64,000 nt of DNA from Inconstantimicrobium porci (GTDB lineage: Bacteria; Bacillota; Clostridia; Clostridiales; Clostridiaceae). The DNA is taken from contig NZ_VULX01000009.1 in assembly GCF_009696465.1 (NCBI RefSeq), forward strand, positions 37,537 through 101,536, read 5' to 3'. Position numbers and translations under genes: made by a program. The stretch's first letter is position 1; each line of letters starts with the position of its first letter. Shown here one piece after another: positions 13,971 through 46,723 of this stretch. Below the pieces are notes generated by a model, which saw only the letters and a program-made list of their open reading frames with translations, made no database searches and was not told the DNA's origin.

Positions 13971-14239
13971 TCCTAGACATTAAAAAGAGAGCTTTGCCCT
14001 CTTTAAATCTCCTAATTTAATAATTGTGGTGGGTTGAAGGTATTGCCTCCATTAAAATTAAGAAATTAGTTAGCTCAGCGCAGCTAATTTTATCATGAAT
14101 TATACAATATAAATTCTACATTACTTATGAGTTTATTTTGTATTAAAAACAGGTATTTTATTAATTATATTACCTTGATAAATAATTATAATTTATGATA
14201 CATTCTTAGTAGCAAATTTTATATTAAGGAGAATAATCT

Positions 14240-22980: not shown

Positions 22981-23400
22981 GACTATTACCCCTTTTATAT
23001 TTATTTTCCACATTTTTAATTTTATCACAACAAAAATAAAAGGTTAAACATTTACATTGTCTTGTTTTAATATATTTTATCTGAAACTAATCTTAATATT
23101 AAATTAATTATATATAATATATATTCCTAACTTCCTCAGCAAACTGTAAGTTGAAACAGCTCATAATGCATAGAGCATAACGCATAGTTGAGGATGAAAT
23201 TAGCTACGCTAATTTTGTAAACATAATGAAGACAAATCCTCCAAGCCTCCTAATGTTATAACTTAAAGTGTTTTAAAGTCTAATTGTAGTTTCTTGTCGA
23301 ACGAATTGCATTGACTATAATTTGGTAATAAAGTATATTGATAGTGTACTACTTGTAGTAATACACTTAATACGTGTGATACTAAACGGAATCTCAGGAG

Positions 23401-25924: not shown

Positions 25925-26115
25925 AAAAGTTTTAATGCTAAAGGATAAAAGTGCATTAGCAAATGCACTTTTTAAAAATAGAAAGAGCTGATATAGATTT
26001 TTCACTATATCAGCTTTTTTCTTTTACAATTAATATTAATAAATTATGAAAGCAGAATGAAGATTGATGAATTCAGGAAACAATCAGTACGCGTTGCTTA
26101 CTGATTCTAATTTCT

Positions 26116-26216
26116 AATGGAGGTTTCACCTCCAAACCTCTGATATCTTAAATTTTAAAGAATTATAAGAGGAACTTGTCCTCTTATTCTGAAACTCCCC
26201 CAAAGGAGTTTCATCC
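26116..26216. repeat. Family-1 composite hairpin repeat, full copy
   Basis: Modules AATGGAGGtttcaCCTCCAAACC, AAGAGGaacttgtCCTCTT and GAAACTCCcccaaaGGAGTTTCATCC. Confidence 0.7.
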
Positions 26217-35898: not shown

Positions 35899-36014
35899 AG
35901 GATGAAACTCCTTTTCTGAAGTTTCAAAATAAGGGTACTAATTCTCCTTATAACTCTTTAAATTAAAATTGCTGAAAGCAACTTCATAAGAGGCTTGGAG
36001 GATTTATCCTCCAT
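35899..36014. repeat. Family-1 composite hairpin repeat, inverted orientation
   Basis: GGATGAAACTCCttttCTGAAGTTTC ... GAGGCTTGGAGGatttatCCTCCATT. Confidence 0.65.
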
Positions 36015-36332
36015 TAAAACTTAGAAATTTATAGGCGTAGCCAATAAATTTCATCCTGCTCTCTTATCTCTACTCTCTTATCTCTTAGCTTTTCAATACT
36101 ATACTTGCCCTACAGGATTCTTTTTGTCTTCAACATTAACTTAATTCACAAAAAACAATCTTGTAACTGTCATAAATATTATTATACCACTGTATTATGA
36201 ATAATTTTAAAAAAATGTAATTATAAACTATTTATTTTACAGAATTCTCCCTAATTTGTTTTATTCCCTACTTTAATGTAGAATATTAAAGATATATACT
36301 ACTTTTACTAAAGATGAAAGGAGAAAAAACAT

Positions 36333-37529
36333 ATGAATATCAAACTTGATATATTTGAAACTATGGCTATTGCAACTTTTGTATTTTACCTTGGGCAGTT
36401 TTTAAGAAAGAAAATTAAATTCTTATCAAAATATTGTATTCCAGCTCCAGTAATTGGCGGGCTTTTATTTGCCATCCTAGTACTGAGCTTAAGACTTACA
36501 GGAACTATGACAATAACTCTCGATACAACTCTTCAGCCATTATTTATGACAGCATTCTTTACTACAGTAGGCTATACCGCTAGTTTAAAGATTCTTAAGC
36601 AGGGTGGAATAAAAGTATTTATATTCCTTATTTTAGCCACTATTTTAGTTGCTCTACAGGATACATTAGGTGTTGCTTTAGCAAAATTATTTGGTCTTGA
36701 TCCACTTTTAGGTCTATGTACAGGTTCTATTCCTATGGTAGGTGGACACGGAACATCAGGGTCATTTGGACCATTACTTGAAAACATGGGTATAGCAGGT
36801 GCAACCAGTATATCATTTGCTTCTGCAACATTTGGTCTTGTTATGGGAAGTTTTATCGGCGGATTGGTCGCAAAACGTCTTATTGACAAACATAACTTAA
36901 AGACTCCAAAAGAAAATTATGAAAAAGAAATTCCATTAAGTGATTTTCATGAAGATGATGCGGCTATATTATGTCATAAAAGACTTATGAATGGTGCAGC
37001 CTGGATATTTTTTGCTATGGGGCTTGGTTCAGTAATTTCTAAGTTAATTCAGGATACTGGACTTACCTTCCCATCATATATCGGTGCAATGCTTGCTGCA
37101 GCAGTAATCAGAAATATATGTGATTTCAGACATATACAAATGGAAGAAAAAGAAATAGAAGCTCTAGGCGGAATCAGTCTTTCATTCTTCTTATCAATGG
37201 CTCTAATGAACTTAAAGTTATGGGAATTATTCGCACTTGCAATTCCTATGGTAGTAATGCTTATTGCGCAAGCTATATTAATGGGTGCATTTGCTTACTT
37301 TATAACATACAACGTTATGGGAAGAAATTACGATGCAGCTGTATTTGCTTCTGCTAACTGTGGTTTTGGGATGGGTGCGACTCCTAATGCCGTAGCGAAT
37401 ATGGATGCTCTTACAGCTAAATTTGGCTTTGCTCCTACACCATACTTCGTAGTTCCAATAGTCGGATGCCTATTTATCGATTTTGTTAATTCTGCAGTAA
37501 TAACCTTTTTCATTAATATAATCCATTAA
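36333..37529 (+). CDS. gltS: Sodium/glutamate symporter (GltS family)
   Basis: 398 aa with the GltS-type helix arrangement. N-terminus MNIKLDIFETMAIATFVFYLGQFLR. Confidence 0.75.
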   Translation: MNIKLDIFETMAIATFVFYLGQFLRKKIKFLSKYCIPAPVIGGLLFAILVLSLRLTGTMTITLDTTLQPLFMTAFFTTVGYTASLKILKQGGIKVFIFLILATILVALQDTLGVALAKLFGLDPLLGLCTGSIPMVGGHGTSGSFGPLLENMGIAGATSISFASATFGLVMGSFIGGLVAKRLIDKHNLKTPKENYEKEIPLSDFHEDDAAILCHKRLMNGAAWIFFAMGLGSVISKLIQDTGLTFPSYIGAMLAAAVIRNICDFRHIQMEEKEIEALGGISLSFFLSMALMNLKLWELFALAIPMVVMLIAQAILMGAFAYFITYNVMGRNYDAAVFASANCGFGMGATPNAVANMDALTAKFGFAPTPYFVVPIVGCLFIDFVNSAVITFFINIIH

Positions 37530-37602: not shown

Positions 37603-37785
37603 ATGAGTAAAAAACATAATTGTGGATGTCATTCAGAAAATCAAAGTTTTGAAAGTCATGTAGATTCAGGCTGCTCTAGTGGCTGCGAATGTGGATCAAG
37701 TGACATTGAGAAGAAAAATGCTAAATATGAATCAAAAGTAGATAAAAACCCAAACAAGAAAACTTCTGGAAATAATCAATGGTAG
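37603..37785 (+). CDS. Cys/His-rich small protein (60 aa), a putative metal-binding peptide
   Basis: Strong RBS AAAGGAGG 7 nt upstream. Sequence HNCGCH...SGCSSGCECGSS (6 Cys, 3 His). The C-terminal half is Lys/Asn-rich. Confidence 0.5.
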   Translation: MSKKHNCGCHSENQSFESHVDSGCSSGCECGSSDIEKKNAKYESKVDKNPNKKTSGNNQW

Positions 37786-37863: not shown

Positions 37864-38457
37864 ATGACAATTTTTTTAATGATTCTTTTATCTTATCTTA
37901 TAGGTTCTATACCTACAGGATACCTTATTGTTAAATGGAAATTCGGAAAGGATGTAAGAAACTTTGGAAGCGGCAACATCGGTTCAACCAATGTAGGAAG
38001 AGTTGCTGGCAAGAAGTATCAAATAATAACTACTATTTTAGACATTTTAAAAGGCTTTGTACCTGTAGTAATAGCAGATATTGCCTGCAGGAATAACTTA
38101 ATAAGCATTAATAAAGAACTATTTCTTATTTTAATAGCTTTTACTACAATTATAGGTCATAACTTTACAATATTTCTAAAGTTCAAAGGCGGTAAAGGAG
38201 TATCAACAACAATAGGATCATTTGTATATCTTGTTCCTATTCCAATGCTGATAGTTGCGATTTTATTCTTTTCAATGAAGCTTAAAACAAAAGTTGTATC
38301 TATAAGAGTTCTAGTATGTGCTCTAGTTCTTTTCTTAAGTACATGGATTTTAGGTTATGATAAAGCCTATGTTATAGCAACATTCTGTGCCTTTGCACTT
38401 ATCTGTGTAAGACATAAATCTAATATTGTAAGAATAATCAAAGGTGAAGAAAAGTAA
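37864..38457 (+). CDS. plsY: Glycerol-3-phosphate acyltransferase PlsY
   Basis: YLIGSIPTGYLI and FGSGNIGSTNVGR motifs. 197 aa. Confidence 0.9.
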   Translation: MTIFLMILLSYLIGSIPTGYLIVKWKFGKDVRNFGSGNIGSTNVGRVAGKKYQIITTILDILKGFVPVVIADIACRNNLISINKELFLILIAFTTIIGHNFTIFLKFKGGKGVSTTIGSFVYLVPIPMLIVAILFFSMKLKTKVVSIRVLVCALVLFLSTWILGYDKAYVIATFCAFALICVRHKSNIVRIIKGEEK

Positions 38458-38477
38458 TTTAGAATTTAAAGTTATGG

Positions 38478-38509
38478 AGAGAAACTAGCTAGATTTTCTA
38501 GCTAGTTTC
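38478..38509. terminator. Bidirectional terminator between plsY and the deaminase/kinase gene
   Basis: agaaactagctag-attttc-tagctagtttct, a perfect 13-bp stem. Confidence 0.6.
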
Positions 38510-38572
38510 TTGTTTCCTCAATGTAAAACCTACAAAAGAAGCAAATAAAGCTGTAAACTCTGACAGTAGAAT

Positions 38573-39568
38573 TTAACTTATAACATCTACTTCTGTTTCA
38601 TCTGGCTCTTCAAATATGCTGCTTACCTTTTTCTTAAGGTTCTCATCAACATAATAATCATTTGAACGTCCTTTTTCTACCGCATCATTTCTATTTTCTA
38701 TATGTTTATTCCACGTTTCATCATCAACTTTTATGTAATGAAGTTCAGTTTCTATCCCCTGATTATTAAAGAATTCTTTTGCTGTTTTTCTTTCAACTTT
38801 TGTCCATAAGCCTGAATCTATTATTACGTTTGTCCCTGCCTTAGCAACTTCTAATGATTTATTATAAATATATTTCTTTACCTTGCAGACAACTTCTTCA
38901 TGTTTATCACCAAGCTGTTTATCAAACATATCTGTCATGATTTCATCACATGACATTATTACAGCATTGCGATTAACTTTGAGTTTTGCAGAATAAGTAC
39001 TCTTACCGCTGCATATCTTTCCACAAATAAGAATAACTTTTGCCTTGTCATTCTTCTGAAATGCTGGTATATCATCACCATCATACTGCGTATATTTAAT
39101 TCCTGCCATATCAAACATTCTCTTTGATCCCTTTACAGAATCAGTTTCTGCATACTTGTCGCTTAAATAAATTACTTCCTTTATACCGCTCTGAATAATT
39201 GCTTTTGCACATTCATTGCAAGGAAAAAGTGTTACATATATCTTAGTTCCTTTTAGTGAGCCACTGTCATTATTTAGTATTGCATTAAGCTCTGCATGGC
39301 ATACATACATATATTTTGTATCAAGGGGCTCTCCTTCTCTGTTCCATGGCATTTCTTCATCGTCGCACCCACAAGGCATACCATTGTAACCAACTGAAAG
39401 AATCTTGTTTTCATTATTAACAATACAAGCGCCAACCTGAGTACTGCTGTCCTTACTTCTCTGGGCAGACAGAAGCGCCACTCCCATAAAATATTCATCC
39501 CAGTTTAAGTAATTACTTCTCTTCACAAAAACACCTCTCATTAAAAATTTTATCATTAGTTTAACCAA
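38573..39568 (-). CDS. Fusion protein: N-terminal dCMP/cytidylate deaminase (CDA zinc-binding fold) plus a C-terminal P-loop kinase-like domain
   Basis: Deaminase motifs VCHAELNAI and [11 protein letters not shown]; [16 protein letters not shown] start typical of ComEB-like dCMP deaminases. The C-terminus has Walker [14 protein letters not shown] and VIIDSGLW. The true start is probably the GTG at about 39526 (RBS GAGAGGTG). Confidence 0.75.
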
Positions 39569-39614
39569 ACTTTAAAGTTACTCTTTATATTAAAACGTAT
39601 ATAAATGATTTAGA

Positions 39615-39815
39615 ATTTAAAATTTAGAATGTAGAATTCAGGTTAAAATTCATTAGCTTCGCCATGAATTTAATTTAATGGAGGATTCTCCTCCAAACCA
39701 CCTGCGAAATTACTGAACGTAATTCCAACTAGAGGCTTGTCCGCCCTATATTTATTTCAAAAACTCACTCAAGGGAGTTTTTCCCTTAATTTTAGATTTT
39801 AAAATCTAAATTTTA
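39615..39815. repeat. MITE-like element: a family-1 composite repeat flanked by 15-bp inverted repeats (AATTTAAAATTTAGA)
   Basis: Left end ...gaatttaaaatttagaat. Right end tagattttaaaatctaaattttaaatta; the reverse complement matches the left end. Internal AATGGAGGattctCCTCCAAACC and AAAACTCActcaagGGAGTTTT modules. Confidence 0.5.
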
Positions 39816-40009
39816 AATTATTTCCTCAATATCTAGTTTATCTTCTTAAACATGTCTCTATTTTATATAGTTATTCTGTTTCTTGTCAAAACTGATTTAT
39901 GTAAATTTAATATTTTTATGTATTTTATTCTAAAATTTGTTATATTATTTATATAATGGTTATTATTTGTCTAACCTCAATAATTAAAAAAGTTAAGGAG
40001 TTGTTAATC

Positions 40010-42235
40010 ATGTCTACAATCAAAGATTTTATTCCTACAATTATTTACGTAATTCTTGGTATAATTGCTGCTTATCTAATTATTTTCAAGCTACTTGGAC
40101 TAAGAGTTATTGGTACTAATGAAGTAGGCGTAGTAGAAAAATGGTGGTCTCCAAAGGGCAACTTAAAATCAGGAAAATTTATTGCACTTAATGGTGAAGC
40201 AGGTTTTCAGCCTGATGTTTTAAGGACAGGCATTCATTTTAAATCATGCTTGGTTTATAAAATAGCAAAATGCCCTCTTGTTACTATTCCTCAAGGTCAG
40301 ATAGGCTATGTATTTGCCAGAGATGGTGAACCTCTTGCTGAAACTCAGACTCTAGGAAAAATTGTAGAGTGTTCAAACTTCCAGGACGCACGAGCCTTCC
40401 TTAAAAACGGTGGTCAGAAAGGTCCTCAAAGAGCAATATTAAGAGAGGGTACTTACGCATTTAACCTTAGTGCGTTTATTGTTCTTACTGAAGAAAATGA
40501 CTACTATTTAAGTATAGGTAATAAGCAAGAAGCTCTTCAGATAAAGAAAATGTCTGACGATCTTAAAGCTAAAAATGGATTTAGACCAGTTATAATTCGT
40601 GAAGGATTAAAGAATATCAAAGATCCAATGGCTATAATTACAGTACATGATGGTCCATCTCTTCCTAGTGGCGAAATAATTGCTCCAGTAGTAGGTGATG
40701 ACCCAACAAATAAAGCAACATATCATAACAATTTCCAAGATCCAGAAGCATTCTTAAGAGCTGGTGGATACCGTGGAAAACAGTATCAGGTAATAAGTGA
40801 TGGTACATTTTTTATTAACAGACTTTTTGCTACTATAGATATAATTCCTAAGACTATTATTCCTGTAGGTTTTGCTGGTGTTGTAAATTCCTTTGTAGGG
40901 AAAAAAGGTGTTGATGTCAGCGGCGCATCTTATACTCATGGTGAACTTGTAGAAGAAGGCTGTAAAGGTATATGGGTTAATCCTCTTATGCCTGGTAAAT
41001 ATGCTTACAATCTTTCTGCAGGAGTTCTTACTCAGGTTCCTACTACAAATTTTATTCTAAAATGGGTTGAATCAGAATCAGGCGGACATAATTTTGATGC
41101 AAATCTTAAAGAAGTAACTTTAATAACTAAAGATGCCTTTGAACCAACTCTTCCACTTTCAGTTGTTGTTCATATAGATTATACCAAGGCACCACTTGTT
41201 ATCCAAAGATTTGGTGACATTAAAAAGCTTGTTGACCAAACTCTTGACCCAATGGTTTCTTCATACTTTAAAAATATAGCTCAGAAAATGACTCTAATTG
41301 AACTTATTCAGAATCGTTCTGAAATTCAAAAGCAGGCAACAGAAGAAATGAAAGAAAAATTTGAGAATTACAATCTTGAACTTGAAGAAGTTCTTATTGG
41401 TACTCCTTCTCCTAATGGTGATAAGAAGATTGAAGAAATATTAAATCAGTTAAGCAATAGACAACTTGCTAAAGAAAAAATTGCTACTTATAATAGTCAA
41501 ATGCTTGCTAGCGAAAAGGAGAAAGAACTTAAGGACTTCCAGGCTAAAGCTGAACAGCAATTTGACCTTACTAAATCTGAAACAAATATCAAAATTCAAG
41601 ACAACATTGGTAAGGCGGAACTACAAAAAGCCAAACAAGATGCAGACAAGCAGAGAGCACTTGCTGATGCTGAAGCATATAAAGTCAAGAAACTTGCAGA
41701 AGCTCAGGCTGAAATGAAAGCAAGACTTGGTATAGCAGAAGCCATAGCAACAAAAGAGCAAGTTAACGCTTATGGGGGACCACAATACCAGGTTCTACAG
41801 AATGTTATGAGCAAATTTACTGATGCCATCAAAGAAGGAGCAATAAATATCGTTCCTAAAAATGTTGTTACAATGGGTGGTTCAGAAGACAATAAGAACA
41901 TCAATGCTTTTGATGGACTTCTTGGTATACTTTTATCTGAAAAAATCGGTATAGATTTTAAATCTGATGAAGGTGAAAGCGACTTTGCTAAGAAAATGAA
42001 AGAAGATATTTATAGAAAGATGGCTGAAGAAGATAAAAAGGAGTCTGAAGAAACTTTAGATATTAAGGCTCCAGAAATAAATGCAGAAAATAATCCACAA
42101 AAAGAGGTTGAAAATATAAATAAAAATGTGGATAACAAAAAAGCAGCAGAAAATAAAACTCACACAGAACCTACACCAGCTAAAAATCCACTACCAAGAT
42201 ACAAGGAATATAACATCTCTGATAAGCTTAAATAA
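40010..42235 (+). CDS. Flotillin-like SPFH/band-7 protein with a long C-terminal coiled-coil, Lys/Glu-rich region
   Basis: N-terminal TM helix, an SPFH domain, then about 300 aa of charged, low-complexity, heptad-like sequence. The start was moved to MSTIKDF, 9 nt after AAGGAG. Confidence 0.7.
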   Translation: MSTIKDFIPTIIYVILGIIAAYLIIFKLLGLRVIGTNEVGVVEKWWSPKGNLKSGKFIALNGEAGFQPDVLRTGIHFKSCLVYKIAKCPLVTIPQGQIGYVFARDGEPLAETQTLGKIVECSNFQDARAFLKNGGQKGPQRAILREGTYAFNLSAFIVLTEENDYYLSIGNKQEALQIKKMSDDLKAKNGFRPVIIREGLKNIKDPMAIITVHDGPSLPSGEIIAPVVGDDPTNKATYHNNFQDPEAFLRAGGYRGKQYQVISDGTFFINRLFATIDIIPKTIIPVGFAGVVNSFVGKKGVDVSGASYTHGELVEEGCKGIWVNPLMPGKYAYNLSAGVLTQVPTTNFILKWVESESGGHNFDANLKEVTLITKDAFEPTLPLSVVVHIDYTKAPLVIQRFGDIKKLVDQTLDPMVSSYFKNIAQKMTLIELIQNRSEIQKQATEEMKEKFENYNLELEEVLIGTPSPNGDKKIEEILNQLSNRQLAKEKIATYNSQMLASEKEKELKDFQAKAEQQFDLTKSETNIKIQDNIGKAELQKAKQDADKQRALADAEAYKVKKLAEAQAEMKARLGIAEAIATKEQVNAYGGPQYQVLQNVMSKFTDAIKEGAINIVPKNVVTMGGSEDNKNINAFDGLLGILLSEKIGIDFKSDEGESDFAKKMKEDIYRKMAEEDKKESEETLDIKAPEINAENNPQKEVENINKNVDNKKAAENKTHTEPTPAKNPLPRYKEYNISDKLK

Positions 42236-42335
42236 AGAATAACTTGATTTAAAAATAATATCTATAGACTTATTTGTCACTTAGGTAAAAGGTAAGGAAA
42301 TAATTCTTGAGACAAGCACATGAATTCTAATCTTA

Positions 42336-42430
42336 AATGGAGGCATCGCCTCCAAACCACTATACTGTTTAACTTTAGAGGTTTGGAGGTAAAACCTCCA
42401 TTTTGAAACTCCAGTGGAGTTTCATCCTTA
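42336..42430. repeat. Family-1 composite hairpin repeat, full copy
   Basis: AATGGAGGcatcgCCTCCAAACC ... GGTTTGGAGGtaaaaCCTCCATTTT GAAACTCCagtGGAGTTTCATCC. Confidence 0.7.
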
Positions 42431-42521
42431 CTTTTTGCTTTTGATCTGTGACCTGTGACTTACAAAGTTCTCATTCATCGAGCTATTTATACTATAGTTT
42501 CTAAAACCACCTTAATTCAAC

Positions 42522-46497: not shown

Positions 46498-46518
46498 ACA
46501 ATTGCCATTAATCAATTA

Positions 46519-46568
46519 AGGATGAAACTCCTTTAGGAGTTTCAAGAAAAGAGGAGAATTCTCCTCTT
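46519..46568. repeat. Family-1 hairpin repeat, partial copy (GGATGAAACTCCtttaGGAGTTTC plus AAGAGGAGaattCTCCTCTT)
   Basis: Directly downstream of the membrane-protein gene. Confidence 0.6.
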
Positions 46569-46723
46569 TAAGACTCTTCTAATTTCATATTAGCAACATA
46601 TACAATATAAAATAAGCAGCCGAAAAATTCGGCTGCTTTTGTTTTTATAAACTAGTCAAAATGATGTTCCTGGCGTCATATATAAAAGTTTTTAAAAAAG
46701 TTTCATTAATTTTCATTGCTAGA

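Follow-up and report, generated by a model that had tools for sequence, protein, structure and literature searches.

Fusion of a predicted DCTD-type dCMP deaminase with a small AAA_33 kinase domain in Inconstantimicrobium porci

Inconstantimicrobium porci WCA-383-APC-5B is a pig-gut member of the Clostridiaceae. Here, we report the analysis of a minus-strand gene in a 64,000-nucleotide stretch of contig NZ_VULX01000009.1 (the window), whose PlsY and Na+/glutamate symporter are identical to proteins of this strain. The gene is predicted to encode a zinc-dependent deoxycytidine monophosphate (dCMP) deaminase of the DCTD type, followed in the same polypeptide by a small P-loop kinase domain (AAA_33). 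We consider it probable that this is a lineage-specific Inconstantimicrobium fusion of a housekeeping-type DCTD with a small AAA_33 kinase, and not a domain-swapped toxin of the type of the anti-phage protein AvcD. What is new is a DCTD with an added C-terminal kinase from an uncharacterised family, in one genus only.

The fusion gene, its two halves and its distribution

An uninterrupted minus-strand open reading frame (ORF) occupies 38573..39568 and comprises 331 codons counted from the first TTG. Translation probably begins instead at the GTG at 39526-39524, which would give a product of 317 aa: a strong Shine-Dalgarno sequence (GAGAGGTG) lies upstream of it, and the gene callers on related contigs and GenBank agree. 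The Shine-Dalgarno region (GGTGTTTTTGTG) is unchanged in every upstream-region haplotype. The gene is laid out as follows.

39532..39539, minus strand: Shine-Dalgarno sequence, 5 nt before the GTG, read from the sequence
38573..39526, minus strand: coding sequence of the fusion (deaminase, then kinase), 317 aa, with the stop codon at 38573-38575 (ORF list, start and Shine-Dalgarno sequence, cluster look-up)
39083..39526, minus strand: Zn-dependent dCMP deaminase (DCTD) domain, residues 1-148 (PF00383, PDB 2w4l, standalone homologues)
39047..39082, minus strand: 12-residue linker, residues 149-160, joining two former genes (starts of standalone kinases, ends of standalone deaminases)
38576..39046, minus strand: AAA_33 P-loop kinase domain, residues 161-317 (157 residues; Walker A G169..G174-K175-S176, S192-x-D194, D237, R246, R279-N280)

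In the 331-codon numbering, Pfam places PF00383 (dCMP_cyt_deam_1) at ORF residues 22-135 (E 2e-27) and PF13671 (AAA_33) at residues 178-297 (E 4e-17). The initial annotation, made from the letters and ORF translations, had called a fusion of a dCMP deaminase with a P-loop kinase; the uninterrupted ORF and the two successive Pfam domains confirm it, and the motifs that it listed (HAE, PCNEC, GKICSGKST and hhhhDSG) are all present, in 317-aa numbering as H77-A-E79, P102-C-N-E-C106, G169-KICSG-K175-S-T and I-I-D237-S-G.

The 317-aa product is identical to GenBank MSR91343.1 of I. porci, named 'AAA family ATPase'. RefSeq entries for the locus cover the C-terminal 175-178 aa only (WP_407928897.1, in the 175/178-aa class, and WP_235900805.1 likewise), and these 175- and 178-aa proteins would fit a sequencing or assembly error that merged adjacent genes, or two separately translated products. 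We give almost no credence to such an artefact: the same junction, with the frame unbroken, occurs in >20 independent metagenome or genome contigs assembled from different samples, including lineages that differ by >1 synonymous substitution per synonymous site (dS), so that an assembly error is not the explanation; moreover, the junction sequence has neither a stop codon nor a strong internal ribosome-binding site, and the original GenBank record is 317 aa long. The dCMP deaminase function is unnamed in the public records of the gene that were looked up, and GenBank and RefSeq are inconsistent with each other. Metabolic reconstructions that use the annotation of this locus would overlook its dCMP deaminase.

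Residues 1-148 align end to end with human DCTD (PDB 2w4l; ~64% identity, E 1.3e-60 over 147 residues, ORF residues 16-162 against chain residues 5-152). DCTDs are defined by HxE and PCxxC (catalytic, zinc) and G(Y/W)N(A/G) (allosteric, dCTP/dTTP) motifs, and those described are single-domain protomers of ~20 kDa that form hexamers (PMC12088426). In the fusion, the catalytic motifs H77-A-E79 and P102-C-N-E-C106 are invariant across all lineages, as is the allosteric motif GYNG (G46-Y-N-G49), with allostery itself predicted. The fusion protein was searched against 185,579 species, each represented by a single genome, and the best 80 matches were kept; they cover residues ~1-160 only, at 68-76% identity (58-63% in the four that reach residues 177-212), and come from Faecalibacterium, Ruminococcus, Acutalibacteraceae and other Clostridia. 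The deaminase homologues inspected among them are standalone proteins of ~150-165 aa that end ~10 residues past a ...QY motif, and a kinase homologue lies within 10 kb of none of the 80 standalone deaminase loci. By sequence, then, the fusion deaminase belongs to the eukaryote/Clostridia DCTD type, and from its similarity and complete motifs we infer that the N-terminal half acts as a Zn-dependent dCMP deaminase (EC 3.5.4.12) of the housekeeping type, under allosteric regulation.

The canonical zinc deaminase of the initial annotation is borne out by these motifs and PF00383; its 'ComEB-like N-terminus' is not, as the half scores 78.7-80.3 bits against the ComEB model TIGR02571 (cut-off 219.45). 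ComEB equivalog membership was rejected on this score and on the lack of a comE context. Among database relatives, the deaminase half scores highest with eukaryotic proteins, from arthropods, molluscs and diatoms, that carry two DCTD domains in tandem; they outrank the bacterial orthologues only because both of their domains score.

Searched alone, the kinase half retrieves gut-Clostridia proteins of ~159 aa, named 'ATP-binding protein' or 'predicted kinase', with 48-58% identity over the full length (this search omitted the near-identical P0001-P0003, and its list was not used to count fusions). Outside Inconstantimicrobium, every listed family member is standalone (157-206 aa), and in the alignment the standalone kinases begin (MAKVIL...) exactly at KAKVIL... 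of the fusion. Because they start precisely at the junction, the gene arose by fusion of two complete genes via the 12-residue linker. All 19 family-invariant residues, including an unusual CGKICSGKS Walker A, are retained in the kinase domain of the window and in two lineages besides it; the Walker B Asp (D237), almost invariant in the family, is present in the window lineage and replaced by Glu in the P0002 and P0003/P0254 lineages. No characterised member of the CGKICSGKS kinase family was found.

Pfam assigns AAA_33 to all members of the family (39/39). Its best PDB profile match is the polynucleotide kinase (PNK) Pnkp1, and its PHROGs matches are an unknown family and a polynucleotide kinase (1e-9). 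Among kinases with this fold, those that phosphorylate hydroxyls use an Asp after strand 2 as their general base. The family has an invariant S-x-D (S192-C-D194) at this position, together with a Walker A of the form GxxxxGK[ST], a Walker B hhhhD and the AAA_33/PNK-like fold. The fold is closest to those of polynucleotide kinase, PFK-2, APS kinase and PSTK, and is neither like that of nucleoside monophosphate (NMP) kinases nor like that of AvcD. The PNK-like matches and the invariant S-x-D favour a hydroxyl acceptor and disfavour a deoxynucleoside monophosphate (dNMP) or cytidylate kinase; the C-terminal half most probably uses ATP to phosphorylate a hydroxyl group and not a nucleoside monophosphate.

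At a 90% identity threshold, the full-length relatives of the fusion fall into only four clusters; these are close to one another and 83-99% identical to the window protein. About 5 independent fusion sequences are available. No full-length fusion was present among the best 80 matches in the species genomes, in 50,697 phage records, in 72,556 plasmid records, or among the best 150 of 17,559 matches in a representative library of 1.84 billion proteins, where the two-stretch matches were tandem deaminases without a P-loop. We thus found the fusion only in Inconstantimicrobium, and the architecture is rare. A Streptomyces plasmid match (H22, query residues 102-314) that was considered as a fusion is instead a degraded standalone kinase homologue.

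Gene order is constant in every contig, with Band_7 divergent from the fusion gene and plsY-gltS-HGD on its other side. The gene is monocistronic, as first described, with divergent Band_7 upstream and convergent plsY downstream. When loci were fetched via plsY, all three contigs that reach past the adjacent insert carried the fusion (3/3); the other seven shown end earlier. Between lineages, dS is 0.5-1.4, and the ratio of nonsynonymous to synonymous substitution (dN/dS) is 0.02-0.05 in the deaminase half and 0.13-0.23 in the kinase half; purifying selection thus acts on both halves. In one lineage, recovered from several independent samples, the deaminase is intact, whereas Walker A is changed to GTICSDKTT (G174D), which is inactivating, and a 40-aa in-frame deletion in the lid region (window residues 266-305) removes W272, R279, N280 and D294.

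L099 4739-5614: dead-kinase fusion variant, protein P0255
L153 2994-3869: dead-kinase fusion variant, protein P0004

Comparison with AvcD and other explanations

The initial annotation read the gene as a possible defence gene with the domain order opposite to that of AvcD. The order is confirmed (deaminase then kinase in Pfam). The defence reading is unsupported, in view of partial model matches, an unrelated P-loop, conserved synteny and a dispersed upstream repeat. As a positive control, we used an AvcD-like gene from a contig of an uncultured member of the Clostridia.

L169 7537-9936, plus strand: AvcD-like anti-phage dCTP deaminase, 799 aa

This control has its P-loop at residues 25-47 and its deaminase at ~375-560, and it scores 361.6 bits over positions 2-437 of 437 of NF041025 (just under the cut-off of 400) and 401.5 bits over positions 143-548 of the PADLOC dCTPase model. 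The fusion reaches 84.5 bits with NF041025, its best stretch covering positions 336-386 of the 437 in the model; with PADLOC dCTPase it reaches 106 bits (positions 434-486 of 630). In both cases the match runs through deaminase motif blocks only. The kinase half alone has no match to either model at E <= 10. BLASTP of the fusion against the control aligns the HAE and PCxxC regions and yields no alignment in the kinase region, and hhalign of the kinase family against the N-terminal 368 residues of the control gives a probability of 1.5%. The profile comparison with AvcD/DCD that the initial annotation had proposed thus turned out against it, with the deaminase half far below the control and the kinase half silent, and membership of the AvcD family was rejected on whole-model coverage, P-loop homology and domain order alike. 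Vibrio plasmid matches considered as AvcD are ordinary 150-aa deaminases. No AvcD structure was seen among the PDB matches of the fusion, and a literature search on PADLOC 'VakA', a weak 20-bit match, found nothing. The control gene itself lies ~2 kb from a standalone kinase homologue, at the edge of a GNAT/methyltransferase array; this closeness is probably coincidental.

That the fusion is nevertheless a domain-swapped analogue of AvcD, a latent nucleotide-depleting toxin held by an upstream RNA (the logic of type III toxin-antitoxin systems) and released by phage infection, is in our judgment very unlikely. It shares the same two broad domain types, and its deaminase half has significant partial matches to both models. 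A conserved promoter precedes a structured sense leader of ~325 nt, and AvcI is a small RNA (sRNA) of ~171-300 nt in the avcID locus (PMC10511110). Variable genes also accumulate downstream of the fusion gene. Yet the AvcD models find the HAE/PCxxC blocks alone, and the P-loop is not traceable to that of the control. The deaminase has its orthologues among standalone housekeeping DCTDs, and its allosteric GYNG is retained. The gene has been conserved over dS >1 in synteny with plsY, gltS and Band_7, and a Pfam scan of its neighbours showed no defence families; its fixed position between Band_7 and plsY-gltS, held up to a dS of 1.4, is not the mobile or defence-island context of AvcD-like genes. 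One lineage has destroyed the P-loop domain and kept the deaminase, whereas the AvcID variant that served as inactive control combines a P-loop substitution (S49K) with one in the deaminase (E376A; PMC10511110). The upstream element is one of eight copies of a dispersed repeat in the window, is partly deleted in one lineage and has no ToxI-like tandem repeats. Nothing positive for a functional analogy to AvcD was seen beyond the domain types. A variant in which the fusion and its structured leader form a nucleotide-pool switch, an independent analogue of AvcID whose leader RNA (a domesticated repeat) would bind the protein while the kinase gates the deaminase, is likewise a long shot.

Two further explanations concern the kinase half. 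It might be a noncatalytic nucleotide-binding module (a pseudokinase) for regulation or oligomerisation that tunes the deaminase hexamer: DCTD activity depends on stabilisation of the hexamer through dCTP (PMC12088426), the kinase half evolves 4-5x faster than the deaminase half, and in the lineage whose Walker A is dead and whose lid is missing, the remnant has stayed in frame, with dN/dS still ~0.17. We judge this improbable, since all residues invariant in the standalone kinases (Walker A, S-x-D, R246, R279-N280) are kept in the window lineage and two others, as would be expected of an active enzyme. The idea that the protein is bifunctional, pairing the dCMP deaminase with a (d)NMP kinase for cytidylate, thymidylate or dNMPs, has metabolic logic in its favour, both activities lying within pyrimidine deoxynucleotide metabolism, and there are weak matches to a PHROG dNMP kinase (E 1e-3) and Pfam dNK (E 0.005-0.03), but the domain neither matches the family models of cytidylate, thymidylate or T4 dNMP kinases nor has them as its closest folds, and we hold it to be distinctly improbable. 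Of the housekeeping alternative offered by the initial annotation, the dCMP deaminase stands, on orthology, synteny and selection, and the dNMP kinase is disfavoured, on the PNK-like fold and S-x-D.

If the gene is, as we favour, a fusion of a housekeeping-type DCTD with a small AAA_33 kinase, its N-terminal domain would be the dCMP-to-dUMP enzyme of the organism for thymidylate synthesis, presumably under dCTP/dTTP allostery, and its C-terminal domain would be an ATP-dependent kinase acting on a hydroxyl group. As a low-confidence guess, the acceptor could be a nucleoside-like 5'-OH, such as that of deoxycytidine, in which case the protein would run deoxycytidine to dCMP to dUMP. Alternatively, the two activities may be unrelated and the fusion a tolerated accident that merely co-expresses them; we regard the coupled route and mere co-expression as about equally likely. 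The repeat-rich upstream region would be a long 5' untranslated region (UTR) that carries, by chance, one copy of a genome-wide structured repeat.

Several points weigh against this explanation. Kinase activity appears dispensable and the deaminase the constrained part, given the P0004/P0255 lineage, which also weakens the case for obligatory coupling of the two halves. The neighbourhoods of the standalone kinases are heterogeneous (obg/mini-RNase III/yebC; NUDIX; HAD phosphatase; GNAT and methyltransferase arrays), with no tie of the family to pyrimidine metabolism in the contexts examined in other genomes; no DCTD-type deaminase lay near a standalone kinase in these contexts, the AvcD-like deaminase ~2 kb off in L169 being of another type. 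The 'housekeeping' label for the predicted deaminase rests on orthology, synteny and selection, and not on uniqueness in the genome. The initial annotation had named a conserved gene of the genus in a comE or nucleotide-metabolism context as evidence against defence; conservation in synteny was found, and a nucleotide-metabolism context was not seen. Finally, the long structured 5' UTR, which is conserved, may regulate this gene specifically.

So far, the fusion is the one piece of domain architecture that hints at what a widespread, uncharacterised family of small gut-Clostridia kinases does; the hint is weak, since the kinase is dispensable in one lineage. That it is a Rosetta stone placing the CGKICSGKS family in deoxypyrimidine salvage looks unlikely, though more likely than the nucleotide-pool switch above. 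More generally, a protein with a deaminase and a P-loop is not automatically an AvcD-like defence gene; a false lead is removed here, and whole-model hidden Markov model coverage, P-loop homology, synteny and selection are tests that separate AvcD from look-alikes.

The upstream region, a dispersed repeat and neighbouring genes

The intergenic region upstream of the fusion gene is 39527-40009. A repeat-rich noncoding region of 390 bp (39569-39955) had initially been described; it is real and repeat-rich, and its extent is greater because Band_7 starts at 40010 (the ORF list puts this start 54 nt too early, at 39956; the protein is 741 aa from 40010, as in related contigs). The region holds divergent promoters and one copy of a dispersed repeat.

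39860..39889, minus strand: likely promoter of the fusion gene, TTGACA-18 nt-TAAAAT, 11/12 consensus positions (consensus scan)
39600..39830, minus strand: structured 5' UTR element, one dispersed-repeat copy (inverted repeats, fold z-score, covariance model)
39769-39789: hairpin in the 5' UTR element
39637-39732: conserved core in the 5' UTR element

TTTTGACA and the -10 box are kept in all four upstream-region haplotypes. The promoter likely implies a 5' UTR of ~325 nt, counted from a predicted transcription start. Within it, 39600-39830 (~230 nt) is predicted to fold (z -5.4) so that a long closing stem, rich in A and T, encloses several hairpins, the arms of the stem being 7-nt arrays at 39608-39638 and 39788-39819 (ATTTAGA x4.4 and AATTTTA x4.6; TRF). 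The four haplotypes fold to the same architecture with unrelated closing-stem sequences, one of them without two of the hairpins, and G-U pairs in one leader hairpin favour the sense (mRNA) strand. Compared across 39527-40009 with L001, L099, L102 and L096, the haplotypes are shuffled relative to the phylogeny of the coding sequence: the L001 protein is 99% identical but its upstream type differs, whereas the L099 protein is 83% identical and its upstream sequence almost the same as in the window. The pattern indicates recombination, apparently with its breakpoint close to the start codon.

An array of the ToxI type (~30-40-nt tandem repeats upstream of a toxin) was not found, TRF detecting only 7-10-nt arrays in the inverted-repeat arms, and neither the upstream region nor the other haplotypes had a relevant Rfam match on either strand at E <= 1. 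The core pattern GGTTTGRAGGNNNANCCTCCATT occurs at 40 loci in metagenomes, none homologous to the element beyond the pattern and none at an Rfam family; at least one recurrent high-GC group reads as the 5' end of a coding sequence, translated as MEALPPNLRDL.

A covariance model of the 98-nt conserved core identified seven further intergenic copies in the window, beside unrelated genes, so that the density is 8 copies in 64 kb, or ~1 per 8 kb.

39637-39732, minus strand: dispersed repeat copy in the fusion 5' UTR
35959-36060, plus strand: dispersed repeat copy
26072-26168, minus strand: dispersed repeat copy
42292-42376, minus strand: dispersed repeat copy
42362-42431, plus strand: dispersed repeat copy
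14013-14099, plus strand: dispersed repeat copy
23188-23265, minus strand: dispersed repeat copy
46518-46588, plus strand: dispersed repeat copy
L096 5194-5278, L096 16699-16789 and L102 3818-3884: dispersed repeat copies in related contigs

The unit is ordered as GGATGAAACTCC-loop-GGAGTTTCA, small hairpins, GAGGTTTGGAGG-loop-CCTCCATTA, a variable hairpin and TTTCATCCTGAA; full units have inverted termini (GGATGAAA...TTTCATCC) and carry copy-specific short motifs in inverted orientation on their flanks. In an alignment of 15 distinct copies that was fitted to the model, pairing is kept in 93% of pair cells (slid controls, 39-52%), and double (compensatory) changes occur in 20 of the 26 pairs. 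The initial annotation had expected an AvcI-like antitoxin sRNA upstream of the gene. The region instead holds a copy of a lineage-specific dispersed structured repeat; because this repeat also stands beside unrelated genes, and because the copy upstream of the fusion gene is partly deleted in one lineage, the region is unlikely to be a dedicated antitoxin locus. The repeat may be an element like a miniature inverted-repeat transposable element (MITE) or repetitive extragenic palindrome (REP), or a multicopy RNA, and this copy may influence expression of the fusion mRNA. A leader or riboswitch common to other dCMP deaminase genes was rejected, as models R1 and R2 had no match in 1.33 Mb around 80 Clostridia deaminase genes; so was a link to the UPF0236 transposase that adjoins repeat sites in L099 and L163, its insertion-sequence ends being without the repeat. 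Previously undescribed, this lineage-specific repeat may outweigh the fusion gene in interest.

The fusion gene lies among the following features.

36333-37529: Na+/glutamate symporter gene (gltS; exact-sequence match)
37603-37785, plus strand: Cys/His-rich small protein, 58-60 aa, MSKKHNCGCHSENQSF...CSSGCECGSS..., between gltS and plsY
37864-38457: PlsY gene, convergent to the fusion gene (exact-sequence match)
38480..38510: perfect 14-bp palindrome between the convergent plsY and fusion 3' ends (inverted repeat search)
40010-42235, plus strand: SPFH/Band_7 protein, 741 aa, divergent neighbour of the fusion gene

The Cys/His-rich protein has no Pfam match and is conserved in all related contigs between gltS and plsY. 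The Band_7 protein is unusually long, its C-terminal half charged and of low complexity, and two back-to-back copies of the dispersed repeat follow its stop codon. The palindrome at 38480-38510 is likely a terminator hairpin (fold of 38458-38572, -29.5 kcal/mol, z -3.55); of the bidirectional terminator initially described here, the palindrome is confirmed, a T-rich tail is present on the plsY side only, and a consensus terminator scan made no call. Insertions recur between the fusion 3' end and plsY. This gap is empty in the window (38458-38572) and occupied in other contigs, at the positions below.

L001 1967-2683: fusion-plsY gap
L096 9140-9349: fusion-plsY gap
L099 5800-13614: fusion-plsY gap

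In these other contigs, the gap holds a 238-aa low-complexity, membrane-anchored, Pro/Glu-rich repeat protein, a 69-aa ORF, or a lanthipeptide cluster (LanB/LanC, ABC transporter, two-component system). Many assemblies break at the 238-aa protein.

Comparison with known systems

AvcD resembles the fusion in combining a P-loop domain and a dCMP-type zinc deaminase in one polypeptide. The AvcD-like control, however, is 799 aa long with the P-loop domain first, whereas the fusion has 317 aa in the opposite order, and the two P-loops are not detectably homologous. AvcD is of the accessory, defence-island type; the fusion is a syntenic, core-like gene with no dedicated antitoxin RNA evident upstream. 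ComEB (B. subtilis type) belongs to the same superfamily as the fusion deaminase and shares its predicted reaction, but falls apart from it in model score and in context, the neighbours here being plsY and Band_7 and not a comE operon.

The standalone AAA_33 family of ~159 aa (e.g., P0151 and P0193) has the 19 invariant residues in common with the C-terminal domain; its members are proteins of their own in varied contexts, whereas in I. porci the domain is fused to a DCTD. PNK-like kinases (T4 PNK 1ltq, Clostridium thermocellum Pnk 4gp6/4jt2, Pnkp1 4xrp and mammalian PNKP), together with PFK-2, APS kinase and PSTK, are 11-21% identical to the fusion kinase, and the phosphatase or ligase partner domain of PNK systems is absent from the fusion. 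The DCTDs (human 2w4l, Streptococcus mutans 2hvv and phage T4 Cd 1vq2) have HxE, PCxxC and G(Y/W)N(A/G) in common with the deaminase half; they are single-domain proteins of ~20 kDa, whereas the I. porci protomer is 317 aa long and carries an extra C-terminal kinase of 157 residues.

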